A program made the position numbers and the translations under genes. Below, in pieces: positions 17,633 to 21,824 of a stretch of DNA of 32,000 nt (positions are counted from its first letter, which is position 1; each line of letters starts with the position of its first letter). Under the pieces are notes generated by a model that was given only the letters and a program-made list of their open reading frames with translations, was not told the origin of the DNA and made no database searches. The DNA is taken from contig CAVYHQ010000002.1 in the NCBI GenBank assembly GCA_963768385.1, forward strand, positions 255,270-287,269. The letters run 5' to 3'. This DNA comes from Bryobacterales bacterium (GTDB taxonomy: Bacteria; Acidobacteriota; Terriglobia; Bryobacterales; Bryobacteraceae).

Positions 17633-18520
17633 ATGGTGAACCTTCAACAGAGATCGCTCCTGATTCTGGCTGGATTGGCGGTTGCGGCCTGGGCTCAATT
17701 GGCGCCGCCGGCGCGCGAGATTCCGCTTTATCCGGGGGTGGCTCCGGGTTCGGAGAATTGGGACTATTCGGAGAGAGCGGCCGGCACGCCGGACCGGCCG
17801 CAGGCACAGAATGTGGTTCGGCCGGTGTTGCTCTATTACCCGGCCGAGAAGGCCAATGCCGTGGGCACCGCGATGATCGTCGCGCCGGGTGGCGGGTTCC
17901 GGACCCTGATGATGTCGTATGAGGGAGTGGATGTCGCCAAACGGCTGAACCAGATGGGCGTCGACGCGTTTGTGCTGAAGTACCGCACTACCTACGTCGA
18001 CCCTGATGCGCCACCTGCCGCCGCGGCCGGGAGGGGGCCAGCCACAACCGGTCCGCAAGCGGGCCAGAATGTGCGTGAGATGGCAGGCAAGGACGGCCAG
18101 CAGGCAGTGCGCCTGCTGCGGCAGCGCGCGGGCGAATTCGGCGTGCTCCCGGATCGAATCGGCATCATTGGTTACTCGGCCGGCGGCGCGGTGGTTCTCT
18201 CGACGGTATATGGTCCTGCCGATGGAAGGCCCGATTTCGCGGCCGCCATCTATGCCGCCGGTGCAAACGCCAATCCACCGCCGGAAGGCGCCACCCCGCC
18301 GCTGTTCATCGCGGTGGCGGCGGATGACCAGGCAGTCGGAATGCAGGGGTCGATTGACCTGTTTGGCGCCTGGATCAAAGCCAAGGCGCCGGCCGAACTG
18401 CACGTGTTCCAAACCGGCCAGCACGGGTTCGGAAAGAAGGGTGGCGGGGCCGATCACTACCTGGACCGGCTGGAGGAGTGGCTGAAGCTGAACGGGTGGC
18501 TGAGCAGGGGGGCGAAGTAG
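17633..18520 (+). CDS. Secreted alpha/beta hydrolase (esterase/lipase-like)
   Basis: It has a signal peptide (MVNLQQRSLLILAGLAVAAWAQ), an oxyanion-type VAPGGGF, the nucleophile elbow IIGYSAGG, and a C-terminal HVFQTGQHGF. Confidence 0.8.
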   Translation: MVNLQQRSLLILAGLAVAAWAQLAPPAREIPLYPGVAPGSENWDYSERAAGTPDRPQAQNVVRPVLLYYPAEKANAVGTAMIVAPGGGFRTLMMSYEGVDVAKRLNQMGVDAFVLKYRTTYVDPDAPPAAAAGRGPATTGPQAGQNVREMAGKDGQQAVRLLRQRAGEFGVLPDRIGIIGYSAGGAVVLSTVYGPADGRPDFAAAIYAAGANANPPPEGATPPLFIAVAADDQAVGMQGSIDLFGAWIKAKAPAELHVFQTGQHGFGKKGGGADHYLDRLEEWLKLNGWLSRGAK

Positions 18521-18538
18521 AACCAGCGACCCTCAGCT
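18520..18538. repeat. Left copy of an exact 19-bp direct repeat (gaaccagcgaccctcagct), part of a 26-nt tRNA-Arg-derived remnant
   Basis: It is identical to 21768-21786 inside the tRNA-Arg gene. It fills the 16-nt gap between the esterase stop (18518-18520) and the PIN stop (18537-18539). It is followed by atccacc, which matches tRNA positions 21804-21810. Confidence 0.85.
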
Positions 18539-19100
18539 ATCCACCGTCGATGCCTTGTTCTTCGCAGAAGTATTCGACAAACCCCGGCACGTTCTTGGAG
18601 AGGCTGTTGAGCAGGCGGGGCAGAGAAACGCCGATCGCTCCAGCCTGATCATGCAGCTTGCCGACGAACAGGCCAGCGTCGAGATCGTAGAGCCCGCGCA
18701 GGAAGGCAGACGGCGCCTGGACGTCGATCTCCAGCGGTTGCACCGACGCGGCCGGAAAGTGGCGTCTATTGTAGGTGACGATCAGATCGGAGTGAGAGCG
18801 GACTGCCACGGCCAGCACATGACGGTCGCCGGGATCGTTCGTCATCGCGTCGATGAGCGGCTCGTAGCCCTCAACCCACGCTTCCGGGAAGTGCCGGCGC
18901 AGCTCTTCCTCCCGCTGGCGGGCCTTCTCGGGCGGCATATTCCACTTCGCGATGAGGTTCCGCGTCACCTCGTCCATGATCCGCTGCGACCAACGCGGCA
19001 GATAGAGCCTGGGCGCCTCCGCCATTCGCAGAAGCGAATCGGCCAGCGGCATCGGGATGAGCACACACGCGTCCAGCACGGCGCGGTAGTCAGCCCTCAT
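18537..19100 (-). CDS. PIN-domain toxin (PIN_3-like) of a type II toxin-antitoxin pair
   Basis: MRADYRAVLDACVLIP (first acidic residue), DRHVLAVAV and DLIVTYNRRHF fit the PIN acidic-residue pattern. The ATG at 19100 overlaps the upstream antitoxin stop as ATGA. Confidence 0.8.
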   Translation of the reverse strand: MRADYRAVLDACVLIPMPLADSLLRMAEAPRLYLPRWSQRIMDEVTRNLIAKWNMPPEKARQREEELRRHFPEAWVEGYEPLIDAMTNDPGDRHVLAVAVRSHSDLIVTYNRRHFPAASVQPLEIDVQAPSAFLRGLYDLDAGLFVGKLHDQAGAIGVSLPRLLNSLSKNVPGFVEYFCEEQGIDGG

Positions 19101-19832: not shown

Positions 19833-21623
19833 CTAGGGTTGTGCTGGTGCCGGAGCTTGGCGCCCGCACAGATATGCGGAGATATCCGCAACGAATTCCG
19901 AGGCTTCCCGAAACACCTCTGGTGATTCGCCGATTTTAGGGATGGCCTTGGCGATCCAATCAGGCTTGTTTGTCGGACCTTCACGCCACCAACACTCAAG
20001 CACGCCGGCCGGCACCAAGAATAGGCCAACTTCTCGGCACTTCATCAAGAGTTCCTTTCCGGCGGTCAACTCCGCACCCGTTAGCCTGCTGATGCCGTAT
20101 CGTTTCACCTCACTCCAGTCTGTAGCCGAATCTAATAGCTCCTGGAGTTCCTTGCGGTCTCCAGACGTAATCCTGCCTGCCATCTCGACTCGATCCAAAA
20201 CTGACCGGGCACTCTCGGCAAACTCAGAGGCCAGCACGAGAGGCTTCCGGTCATTTAAGGCCGAGGAGGTTCTCTTGTATAGTATTTCGATCTTTGACGG
20301 ATCGCCTCTAAGGGTACCGTACAGTTTCAAGAATTCTTCCCGCCGCCTAAGGAGGTCCAGATCCGCAATTACAGCAGTTGGAACGTCGAGAGCCTTGTAT
20401 GTCTCCGCAAGGGTAGCGATGGCCCCCTTACCGCCGCCATGCACGAAATACAGATCCAAAGGAAGTGACGATTCCTTCTCGGTGCGCAAGGCGAGTGCCT
20501 CATAAAAGCGGCAATCGGAGTCTGCTTCGCACACCACCACGCCGGAATGAAAGAGTCCAGTGATCGCCATGGACGAGCGAAGGAGGGGTTTCGCCCATAG
20601 ATCCTGTAATTCAGATTTTCCGAGGGCGGAGACGCGATTTCTATTCCCGTCCCGTGTCATCCGACACACGATGACGTTCGGGGAAGCATCCATCGCACCT
20701 TGGATGATGTCGCTACTGTGTGTTGCAAGGATTATTTGACGGCTGCCGGTTGTTGCGCTTTCTGCAAGGATGCTTCCCAACCGGCGGGCCTGGGGGGGAT
20801 GCAGAAAAGCCTCAGGTTCATCGATGAGCATCACCGGATGGGTGCCAACTTCTGCGGCGAGCACACTTCCTACGAAGCTTCGAATACCGTCGCCCTCGTT
20901 GTCCAGCCGCGGCTGCAACTCCAGAGCCTTCAAGTATTGCACGGATACGCGATCAGCATCACGCTGTCTAGGCGGTTCCTCTCCAACGTGAAACCACACT
21001 TGTTGCCCTCCGCCAAAGTTTATGAGTAACCGGCGATTGAAGGCGGACCGCACGAGGGCGGAAACCCGTTCAGCTAGAACCTCGTCCCGCTGGAGGAAGT
21101 GAATATACGCGGTTGGATTGGTGGTATACGGAGCTGATTGTGTTGCCGAGGCGATGGATAACCGTGATTGGGTATCAAGACGCAGCATCAGAACGTGGCT
21201 CATCCCGGCCACGCTTTGAGCAGTAAGTGTGAAACCTGGCTGCTCTGGTCCAATGCCTGTTCCAGGGTGACCGCCCGCACCATGCGGGAGGGGTGCAGTT
21301 TGGAAGAATTCAATACCTGGAGCTTGCTTGAATGCTGGGTATCGGAGGCGTAACCACTCTGCAAGCTGGTGCGGGGTTCCGGTGCATTGAAACGCAACGT
21401 CGGTGACCACATAGAACGGAAGTTGTGGATTCGGGCCGAACGGGCCCAGCCGTTGCAGATGTTGCTGGATTTCCCGGAGAGTAATACTCTTGCCGCTATT
21501 GTTCGGCCCCGTAATTATCAGCGTCGTTCCCGGTGCGGGGGAAAGAACCAATCCATCGTTAAACGTCAGCTTTTCAATACCAAATGTGAATTCCGAGGCC
21601 GGTGATGCGAAGGAGATGCCCAT
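19833..21623 (-). CDS. ABC-type ATPase fused to a TOPRIM/DUF4435-like nuclease domain (OLD-family or single-chain PARIS-like defence nuclease)
   Basis: ATPase motifs are Walker A ITGPNNSGKS, signature-like EGDGIRSF, Walker B VMLIDEPEAFLHPPQARRL and H-loop LATHSSD. The C-terminal half has VVVCEADSDCRFYEAL (TOPRIM Glu), HGGGKG and VIADLDLL (DxD). G+C is visibly lower than the flanks. Confidence 0.75.
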   Translation of the reverse strand: MGISFASPASEFTFGIEKLTFNDGLVLSPAPGTTLIITGPNNSGKSITLREIQQHLQRLGPFGPNPQLPFYVVTDVAFQCTGTPHQLAEWLRLRYPAFKQAPGIEFFQTAPLPHGAGGHPGTGIGPEQPGFTLTAQSVAGMSHVLMLRLDTQSRLSIASATQSAPYTTNPTAYIHFLQRDEVLAERVSALVRSAFNRRLLINFGGGQQVWFHVGEEPPRQRDADRVSVQYLKALELQPRLDNEGDGIRSFVGSVLAAEVGTHPVMLIDEPEAFLHPPQARRLGSILAESATTGSRQIILATHSSDIIQGAMDASPNVIVCRMTRDGNRNRVSALGKSELQDLWAKPLLRSSMAITGLFHSGVVVCEADSDCRFYEALALRTEKESSLPLDLYFVHGGGKGAIATLAETYKALDVPTAVIADLDLLRRREEFLKLYGTLRGDPSKIEILYKRTSSALNDRKPLVLASEFAESARSVLDRVEMAGRITSGDRKELQELLDSATDWSEVKRYGISRLTGAELTAGKELLMKCREVGLFLVPAGVLECWWREGPTNKPDWIAKAIPKIGESPEVFREASEFVADISAYLCGRQAPAPAQP

Positions 21624-21747
21624 TCACCGCTATAGTAGCCGATTGGCCTCCTTTGCGGCGGAAACCGCCCAGAGTCCATCGCCAAGGGAAACCGGGAGGG
21701 ATTGCGGCCAGAAAGGCCGCAAAAACACGTTTCCTTTGCTTCGAGTC

Positions 21748-21824
21748 TGGTAGGCCCGGCTGGACTCGAACCAGCGACCCTCAGCTTAGAAGGCTGATGC
21801 TCTATCCACCTGAGCTACGGGCCC
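21748..21824 (-). tRNA. tRNA-Arg (anticodon UCU), 77 nt with encoded CCA
   Basis: The reverse complement folds as a cloverleaf: GGGCCCG-TA-GCTC-AGGTGGATA-GAGC-A-TCAGC-CTTCTAA-GCTGA-GGGTC-GCTGG-TTCGAGT-CCAGC-CGGGCCT-A-CCA. All stems pair (G1:U72 wobble). The anticodon is TCT. Confidence 0.9.
21768..21786. repeat. Right copy of the 19-bp direct repeat, inside tRNA-Arg
   Basis: It is identical to 18520-18538. In the tRNA sense it reads AGCTGAGGGTCGCTGGTTC. That covers the last anticodon-loop base, the 3' anticodon stem, the variable loop, the 5' T-stem and the first 3 nt of the T-loop. Confidence 0.85.

Follow-up and report, generated by a model that had tools for sequence, protein, structure and literature searches.

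Probable layered assembly of a defence locus beside tRNA-Arg(UCU) in a Bryobacterales bacterium

When two exact copies of a tRNA-derived sequence enclose a run of defence genes, do they mark the ends of a single integrated element? The question is raised by a locus in a 32,000-nt stretch of a Bryobacterales genome (GenBank assembly GCA_963768385.1, contig CAVYHQ010000002.1, forward-strand positions 255,270–287,269), hereafter the window. There, a predicted OLD-type nuclease gene and a predicted toxin-antitoxin pair, consisting of a helix-turn-helix (HTH) protein and a PIN-domain protein, lie between two copies of a 19-bp sequence, one of them inside the gene for tRNA-Arg(UCU). A first-pass annotation had described a single 3.2-kb islet bounded by an att duplication. 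Our comparison with related loci favours a different answer, which we consider probable: the locus is a layered mosaic, in which a cassette-swapping hotspot at the 3' flank of tRNA-Arg(UCU) holds a decayed tRNA duplication and a separately acquired OLD gene, together forming a fixed remnant.

The exact 19-mer, GAACCAGCGACCCTCAGCT, occurs on the plus strand at 18520–18538 and 21768–21786. There is no extra copy in the window at up to two mismatches, with 0.01 matches expected from shuffled sequence, and the whole 5.72-Mb genome contains only these two, again at up to two mismatches. Because the assembly has two copies only, the 19-mer is not a dispersed repeat, the alternative that had been named as able to refute the islet. 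The genome has 55 tRNAs, one of them tRNA-Arg(UCU) (ARAGORN), and the right copy lies in the gene for this one. This copy covers tRNA nt 38–56, namely the last anticodon-loop base, the variable loop, the 5' T-stem and the T-loop TTC, and ends 21 nt before the tRNA 3' end. The left copy sits between convergent stops: the TAG of an esterase gene ends at 18520, where the repeat copy begins, and the last two bases of the copy belong to the PIN TAG (18537–18539, minus strand). Sequence search, ARAGORN, Rfam and the stop codon coordinates thus bear out the first-pass annotation on the repeat, on the tRNA around its second copy, and on the left copy filling the gap between the esterase and the first islet gene. 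Its caveat was also well placed: left of the left copy, the C-terminus of the esterase stands instead of tRNA nt 57–77, and the displaced tRNA 3' end is missing. On the plus strand the left copy is followed by ATCCACC, equal to a D-loop segment that lies 17 nt further on in the tRNA. Scanning for structured RNA over 17.0–22.6 kb found the tRNA alone, and scans for promoters and terminators gave no more than background.

We compared the locus with seven genomes of the same genus and several metagenomic contigs, whose flanks share ~87–93% DNA identity with the window; this covers about ten related loci, and the defence functions of their occupants are predicted. An empty site is present in one congener (G001, locus L034), where the sequences matching window positions 14675–17621 and 21743–21824 are ~40 bp apart by BLAST, with ~55 nt of the genome's own spacer after the CCA as judged by eye. 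Its tRNA-Arg(UCU) is followed by the promoter of a YbaK/tRNA_edit-like gene, and the esterase, PIN, HTH and OLD genes are all missing. The proposed check for an empty site was therefore successful, but the site joins the tRNA to the YbaK-like gene and not, as had been envisaged, to the esterase. It follows from this empty site that the accessory segment includes the esterase (Table 1). In other congeners the slot is filled differently. G004 has one 651-aa Schlafen-group-3 (SLFN-g3) helicase/NERD gene, a full-length match to the PADLOC candidate PDC-S41 (E=1e-257), which ends 5 bp from the esterase stop with no repeat; G002 has an Abi_alpha gene and an unknown gene; the sequence after the tRNA in G006 is unrelated. 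The 3' flank of tRNA-Arg(UCU) is thus a hotspot where small defence cassettes enter and swap.

The OLD gene and the HTH-PIN pair are separable at this same locus. Four metagenomic contigs (L043 and L044–46) have the order AP_endonuc_2 / tRNA-Arg / OLD / esterase / SpeE-like gene, with neither PIN nor HTH. Their DNA homology to the window covers 17635–18521 and 19809–21862, the latter at 94% identity for L043 and 88.5% for L044–46, and where the window has the intervening 1287 bp (18522–19808: pseudo-tRNA, PIN, HTH and spacer), they have 50 bp. These contigs lack a second tRNA fragment, and their 50-bp spacer is the 3' terminus of the PDC-S41 gene that fills the slot in G004. Contig L056 has the order AP_endonuc_2 / tRNA-Arg / HTH / PIN / tRNA-Arg / tRNA_edit / SpeE-like gene, with neither OLD nor esterase. 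Both of its tRNA-Arg genes are complete, forming an 89-nt perfect direct repeat, and the PIN stop lies inside the second; between the first tRNA and HTH it keeps ~45 bp of the 5' end of the PDC-S41 gene, GTG start included. Since L043–46 have only OLD and L056 has only HTH-PIN, these are separate cassettes, and the islet is a mosaic. The PDC-S41 helicase gene appears to be an earlier occupant that was partly overwritten by each of the two. A single 3.2-kb islet is hard to sustain when its cassettes segregate separately, and the repeat that was taken to bound it originally bounded HTH-PIN alone, as the two whole tRNAs of L056. G003 has a second, independent whole-tRNA duplication at the locus: a DUF3489/HTH gene and a 119-aa open reading frame (ORF) lie between two complete tRNA-Arg(TCT) genes, which are separated by 1.6 kb (L031, G003:C68 8665–10407). 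The distal tRNA copy, at 94% identity, extends over 34 nt of 5' flank, and the duplicated block measures 111 nt. Beside it is a 106-bp orphan SpeE-like piece, corresponding to window 16706–16811.

The L056 arrangement also suggests where the left 19-mer came from. Its PIN gene end reads ATCGAC CTTAGATTAGACAC GGGCCCGTAGCTCA GGTGGATAG AGCATCAGCCTTCTAAG CTGAGGGTCGCTGGTTC GAGTCC...CCA, and that of the window reads ATCGAC GGTGGATAG CTGAGGGTCGCTGGTTC, followed by the esterase stop. Relative to L056, the window lacks a 28-nt block (CTTAGATTAGACAC, 14-nt spacer, and tRNA nt 1–14) and the 17-nt anticodon arm, and its relic is cut off after the T-loop TTC, against the esterase stop codon. Contigs L047–L052 (PIN 93% identical to that of the window, esterase at 92.6% DNA identity) have the same two junctions. 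They retain the tRNA remainder as far as ..GCCA, with 7 substitutions, as well as ~25 nt of the native tRNA-downstream flank as in G001 and L056; next come a 396-aa gene and more tRNA-3'-like scraps at the esterase stop. We read the left 19-mer as the probable relic of a second tRNA-Arg copy that belonged to the HTH-PIN module. Truncation of this second-tRNA relic at the T-loop would explain the missing displaced tRNA 3' end, which L047 still has. We prefer a derivation by two deletions because, as a matter of parsimony, it needs no substitutions. The 396-aa gene between the pseudo-tRNA-Arg and the scraps by the esterase (L047 8626–9816, minus strand) occurs in six metagenomic contigs, has no Pfam, NCBIfam or PADLOC match and is a further occupant of the hotspot.

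Composition also divides the cargo. The OLD gene has a GC content of 0.556 and a third-codon-position GC content (GC3) of 0.576, below the 1st percentile of 1.8-kb windows of the genome, and region 19586–19832 has a GC content of 0.543. GC3 is 0.80 for PIN, 0.69 for HTH and 0.76 for the esterase; the backbone is at 0.79–0.85. The islet is therefore only partly foreign by composition, because PIN, HTH and the esterase resemble the backbone in GC3 and OLD does not; OLD alone of the cargo is compositionally foreign. These computed values agree with the earlier hand counts, which had placed low GC over the ATPase gene and the 19.6–19.8 kb spacer and the toxin-antitoxin genes nearer the backbone. 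The Pfam and PADLOC matches similarly agree with the earlier description of the cargo as a PIN/HTH pair plus an ATPase-TOPRIM nuclease.

Mobility of the present locus seems improbable. As had been noted from the ORFs, the islet contains no integrase or recombinase (Pfam on all islet ORFs) and the window no integrase, and a genome scan with PF00589 placed the nearest tyrosine integrase 27 kb outside the window. In five congeners no tyrosine integrase lay beside tRNA-Arg(UCU): four had none on the tRNA contig, and in G004 the nearest was 41 kb away. The same islet accompanied by an integrase, which it had been hoped to find elsewhere, was not seen among the closest OLD and PIN contigs, which have no integrase; a scan of genome contigs with OLD gave a distant Bacteroidales match only. 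Recombination between the two 19-mers would swap tRNA nt 57–77 for esterase sequence in the sole tRNA-Arg(UCU). Given that 19 bp of repeat are left, that there is no matching attP and no local recombinase, and that recombination would truncate the sole tRNA-Arg(UCU), we infer that the islet is not mobile but a fixed chromosomal remnant. Calling it a decayed or satellite-like tRNA-linked defence islet was apt insofar as it is accessory, lies at the tRNA 3' flank, has defence-type cargo and has no recombinase; the description fails for its being one unit, for the 19-bp att core and for the boundary at the esterase.

The history we propose would have three steps. DNA with an HTH_17/PIN_3 module would have entered 3' of the tRNA with duplication of the whole tRNA, producing tRNA-(cargo)-HTH-PIN-tRNA'. 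The distal tRNA' would then have lost its first 14 nt, and after that its anticodon arm; in this genome a deletion would have fused it to the esterase stop, removing all past the T-loop such that the 19-mer and ATCCACC remain. Separately, the low-GC foreign OLD cassette would have taken the slot by the functional tRNA, formerly that of the PDC-S41 Schlafen-like helicase. We infer this order of events, and that the tRNA was duplicated by recombination within it, whether site-specific or homologous. Several points weigh against this history. MAFFT aligns the relic with one 47-nt deletion, leaving tRNA nt 38 onward, which resembles the 3' half at an attR. Composition and position are the two grounds for putting HTH-PIN first and OLD later. 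Classical integrase att sites keep the tRNA 3' part only, and L056 and G003 duplicate 5' flank too. Metagenomic contigs may be chimeric, yet the OLD arrangement is seen alike in four independent contigs and the L047 type in six. Finally, the window could be a recombinant of L047-like and L043-like loci.

Other copies of the HTH-PIN module bear on the mechanism. The 1.08-kb module (window 18546–19625) is found in 26 of 221 genomes of the family, one copy each, at 72–83% DNA identity. ARAGORN places a tRNA within 1.5 kb of the module at 7 of 24 loci, and BLAST reveals tRNA fragments at more. In G059, a full tRNA-Val(GAC) and a 66-nt 3' copy enclose a 1130-bp unit with HTH-PIN alone. In the tandem array of G324, a full tRNA-Pro(GGG) and a 580-bp "solo arm" come before an attP-like junction, which joins an arm end, the core GCTTGGGGTGCA and a left end; HTH-PIN is next, and after it an arm and a displaced tRNA-Pro 3' half. 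In G145, a truncated SLFN-like gene precedes HTH-PIN, and the arm and tRNA-Pro 3' half come after. The tandem array of G397 starts with an intact tyrosine integrase gene, then an arm end and tRNA-Pro 3' half; its second element has a UvrD-like gene, a truncated integrase and a Fic gene, followed by a 289-bp arm and core; at its end are HTH-PIN, the same arm (93%) with core GCTTGGGGTGCA, and a tRNA-Pro 3' half. This core is the anticodon stem-loop of tRNA-Pro(GGG). Anticodon stem-loops are a classic target type for tyrosine integrases. The structures in G059, G324, G145 and G397 show that in other genera HTH-PIN is set in genuine att architecture but does not bring its own integrase. In the window's genome we found neither an arm or core of the tRNA-Pro type nor a second HTH-PIN copy. 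At loci where the module is not beside a tRNA (L053/L055, L060, L068 and L077), PIN is 195 aa long, and downstream of its gene comes the start of a pRiA4b ORF-3-like gene (PF07929; ..YQLKVSLRDIEPPIWRR..), which is truncated in many cases; the module may originally have comprised three genes.

One tentative reading, to which we give somewhat less than even chances, is that HTH-PIN is the sole cargo of non-autonomous, integrase-less elements of ~1.1–1.5 kb that would use tRNA-Pro(GGG), tRNA-Val(GAC) and tRNA-Arg(UCU) and be moved in trans by co-resident integrases, with the HTH protein as a possible directionality factor; the window copy would be dead. We draw this from the tRNA within 1.5 kb of the module at 7 of 24 loci, from the repeats of three tRNAs, from the arm and core that HTH-PIN of G397 shares with a truncated-integrase element, and from the attP-like junction of G324. 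Alternatively, the module may be what decayed islands have left behind, an addictive toxin-antitoxin pair being the part that survived longest. If mobilised in trans, these would be among the smallest integrative elements known and would offer a route for toxin-antitoxin pairs to seed tRNA hotspots.

Of the competing explanations for the locus itself, the one that survives best, possible although unlikely, is that cassettes were swapped purely by homologous recombination in the flanks, with the tRNA duplicated by Campbell-type integration of a circle and no site-specific recombinase involved. Homology breaks off precisely at gene ends and at the 3' terminus of the tRNA, and the blocks duplicated in L056 and G003 include tRNA 5' flank, which is unusual for att; the lack of an integrase at tRNA-Arg(UCU) in the window genome and five congeners is equally in keeping with this explanation. 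Its difficulties are that the junctions with PDC-S41 remnants need illegitimate recombination too, and that the same module has clear site-specific att architecture elsewhere.

We judge a classical attR origin to be distinctly improbable. Here an element with att-proximal HTH-PIN would have integrated with an identity block from nt 38 to the tRNA 3' end, the left copy would be the displaced native 3' half, truncated, and the element would have decayed to its addictive toxin-antitoxin pair; the second tRNA of L056 would be a separate matter. The one-deletion alignment allows this, and the L047 pseudo-tRNA does run from nt 38 to ..CCA and on into native downstream flank. Other genera lend it further support, with the module beside a textbook tRNA-Pro(GGG) attR (arm, core GCTTGGGGTGCA and 3' half) and, in G059, between the full tRNA-Val and its 3' copy. 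It requires, however, 2–3 substitutions in 4 nt that recreate the D-loop sequence GGTGGAT (7/7 positions in the window, 6/7 in L047). It also leaves unexplained the complete second tRNAs with 5' flank in L056 and G003, and no integrase is found at tRNA-Arg(UCU) in any genome examined. For the left copy we thus rank the attR-type one-deletion reading second, below the two-deletion relic.

Very little weight can be given to the original proposal, in which a 3.2-kb islet of PIN, HTH and OLD arrived in one tyrosine-integrase event at a 19-bp att core and later lost its integrase and the displaced 3' end. The exact tRNA-derived direct repeat at both ends, the cargo on the 3' side of the tRNA and co-oriented with it, and the low GC of part of the islet had made it attractive. 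It founders on the separation of OLD (L043/L044) from HTH-PIN (L056) at the same locus, on OLD alone being compositionally foreign, on a repeat (nt 38–56) that stops short of the tRNA 3' end, and on the D-loop piece in the left copy, from a whole tRNA that in L056 bounds HTH-PIN alone. The idea that the match arose by chance, or that it is a dispersed tRNA-like repeat with no link to the islet, has only the shortness of the match in its favour and is already refuted by the expectation of 0.01 per window, the two copies in 5.7 Mb, and the homologous pseudo-tRNA (L047–L052) or full tRNA (L056) at the equivalent position.

The features of the locus are collected in Table 1. The last codons and stop of the PIN gene lie within the tRNA relic. 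The PIN protein scores below the cut-off for the RSP_2648-family PIN of NCBIfam; the candidate acidic active-site motifs LD10AC, D43E44, D92RHVLA and T109-Y-N111 are visible by inspection, and the PIN_3 model matches at full length. It has 833 homologues, the top ones 77–94% identical and 187–195 aa long; those named come from Acidobacteria, Bryobacteraceae and Ca. Sulfotelmatobacter. HTH lies upstream and overlaps PIN by 4 nt; its true start is likely the ATG at 19552, for 151 aa, matching the metagenomic gene calls in L047–L056. Homology of the module to all other copies stops at 19625, and the conserved region that ends there is probably its promoter/operator.

Table 1. Features of the tRNA-Arg(UCU) locus in window coordinates
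Feature	Position	Strand	Evidence or remark
YbaK/tRNA_edit-like gene, 162 aa, conserved left flank	17090–17578	-	orthologue called PF04073 tRNA_edit in L056
Whole accessory segment (esterase, pseudo-tRNA relic, PIN, HTH, OLD)	17622–21747	.	comparison with the G001 empty site
Alpha/beta-hydrolase (esterase/DLH-like)	17633–18520	+	Pfam Peptidase_S9/DLH
Putative relic of second tRNA-Arg(UCU): 19-mer (nt 38–56) + ATCCACC (D-loop nt 16–22)	18520–18545	-	comparison with L056 and L047
PIN_3 protein, 187 aa, predicted toxin	18537–19100	-	Pfam PF13470, E=5.9e-9, full-length match
HTH_17 protein (truncated MerR/excisionase-type), predicted antitoxin	19097–19585	-	Pfam PF12728, TIGR01764
Conserved region upstream of HTH-PIN (TTCGAATAAT..TGTTGCGTTTATTTCG)	19553–19625	-	kept in ~23 copies from different genera
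Spacer, 183 bp, GC ~0.54, this genome only	19626–19808	.	no match in L043/L044, L047, L053, L056
OLD cassette (OLD gene + flanks)	19809–21747	-	one block common to metagenomic relatives without PIN/HTH
Class 1-type OLD (ATPase-TOPRIM) gene	19833–21623	-	PADLOC Old, E=1.1e-20; Pfam AAA_21, AAA_15, OLD-like_TOPRIM
Functional tRNA-Arg(TCT/UCU)	21748–21824	-	ARAGORN; Rfam RF00005, 69 bits; holds right 19-mer

The OLD protein has OLD-like_TOPRIM at 357–423, and its translation contains a Walker A (G39PNNSGKS), a Walker B (LIDEPE) and a TOPRIM acidic cluster. Its sole nuclease match in the PDB is the OLD nuclease 6p74 (E=7.6e-5). Homologues were limited to 5 of 301 genomes from the order, and the next best is 48% identical, which adds to the case for a foreign origin; the closest proteins, on metagenomic contigs, are those of L043 (93% amino acid identity) and L044–46 (87%). 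The gene stands alone, adjoining the tRNA and the HTH-PIN pair, or in L043–46 the tRNA and the esterase. Pfam and PADLOC searches of the neighbours found no UvrD/GajB, reverse transcriptase/ncRNA or AriB-type partner. From its domains, we predict that the product is an anti-phage nuclease.

The esterase is variably present, at 90% DNA identity in G004 and 92.6% in L047 and absent from G001, G002 and L056. The YbaK-like gene is present in G001, G002 and G004 and absent from L043/L044. A 455-aa ORF listed at 17090–18457 (minus strand), antisense to the esterase, is spurious; its real part is the 3' 162 codons, the YbaK-like gene. We considered whether the 183-bp spacer was a remnant of the 3' end of the PDC-S41 helicase gene and rejected this, finding only GAGATTTGAG-type resemblances of 9–14 nt and a tblastn E of 0.17. 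A 22-mer, TCGATCCACAACCCCTCCACCA (19787–19808, minus strand), directly abuts the OLD cassette on its left side and resembles the T-loop-to-CCA end of a tRNA. We do not take it for the att scar of a different tRNA: the genome has no second copy of it, and the nearest of the genome's own tRNAs, Ala-UGC, differs at 5 of 22 positions. Among the 221 family genomes it gave one match, non-tRNA and with 2 mismatches, and no source tRNA was found; its likeness to a tRNA is probably due to chance.

Farther along, between the tRNA flank and AP_endonuc_2, a ~50-bp sequence (window 22352–22405) has many copies at 85–100% identity in this genome and all congeners and looks like a dispersed repeat of the repetitive extragenic palindrome or miniature inverted-repeat transposable element (REP/MITE) kind. 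In the window's own genome (G000), a 416-aa tyrosine integrase ORF (G000:C1:291532–293115) lies ~1 kb from tRNA-Arg(CCG), a candidate for a classical tRNA-integrated element. Four further Phage_integrase ORFs of 307 aa in G000 (C2:227925, C3:966186, C4:210560 and C4:305873) have identical scores (143.5 bits) and are probably one multi-copy element, insertion sequence-like or integron-like; G004 has similar multi-copy integrase sets.

The main value of this analysis lies in correct annotation. Repeats around defence genes invite the label of integrated islet even when the history is layered, and this locus is a worked example of misleading att-like scars. It also puts on record a defence hotspot next to a tRNA in a little-studied soil/peat lineage, whose named relatives are Acidobacteria. 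The wider lead is the HTH-PIN module, beside different tRNAs in att architecture without its own integrase.

How does the locus compare with known systems? Like class 1 OLD proteins (phage P2 Old; Thermus scotoductus OLD, PDB 6p74), the window protein is one polypeptide with an N-terminal ABC-type ATPase and a C-terminal TOPRIM domain; it differs in being only distantly similar to solved or named members and in its chromosomal, tRNA-adjacent position in an acidobacterium-like genome. The HTH/PIN pair, a predicted type II toxin-antitoxin system by its gene content, resembles the PIN-MerR family, predicted as toxin-antitoxin, in which a truncated MerR-type HTH with a small N-terminal domain is encoded upstream of PIN (PMC2701414, Makarova et al. 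2009). The window pair shares with that family HTH upstream and PIN downstream, the 4-nt overlap and a mobile, patchy distribution, but it is repeatedly bounded by repeats from several tRNAs (Arg, Pro and Val), and its PIN has a C-terminal extension of ~70 aa. A full-text literature search pairing 'PIN_3' with 'HTH_17' returned no paper.

Like tRNA-linked genomic islands bounded by att repeats, the locus is accessory DNA that lies directly 3' of a tRNA, in the same orientation, and ends distally in a tRNA-derived repeat; one congener (G001) has the empty site, and part of the cargo is foreign in composition. Unlike such islands it has no internal integrase, its cassettes segregate independently and were not acquired as one unit, and its distal copy comes from a complete second tRNA; the repeat, at nt 38–56, stops before the tRNA 3' end, so that a repeat of the tRNA 3' part does not occur at both ends. 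Integrase target sites reportedly fall at particular sublocations within tRNA genes. Cis-mobilisable elements (CIMEs; PMC5704250), the kind to which trans-mobilised HTH-PIN units would belong, offer a second comparison: the window remnant is likewise repeat-bounded and has no integration or transfer genes, and in G397 and G324 the HTH-PIN unit lies in a tandem array with attP-like junctions. The window remnant departs from CIMEs in that the distal att equivalent is 19–26 nt without the tRNA 3' end and has no matching attP; the 19-mer has no other copy in the genome, a retained and usable pair of att sites is lacking, and mobilisation in cis is implausible. CIMEs were described in streptococcal systems of integrative and conjugative elements and integrative mobilisable elements (ICE/IME), not in this phylum and not with a toxin-antitoxin pair as sole cargo (PMC5704250).

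The locus also resembles defence hotspots and defence islands: one conserved chromosomal slot has OLD, PDC-S41, Abi_alpha or nothing in different strains. Chromosomal hotspots of this sort have reportedly been surveyed in E. coli and Pseudomonas. The present case differs in that about ten loci are compared and the occupants are known as predicted defence genes. In these terms the locus is an ordinary example of a decayed tRNA-adjacent defence hotspot, with an old tRNA-duplication scar.

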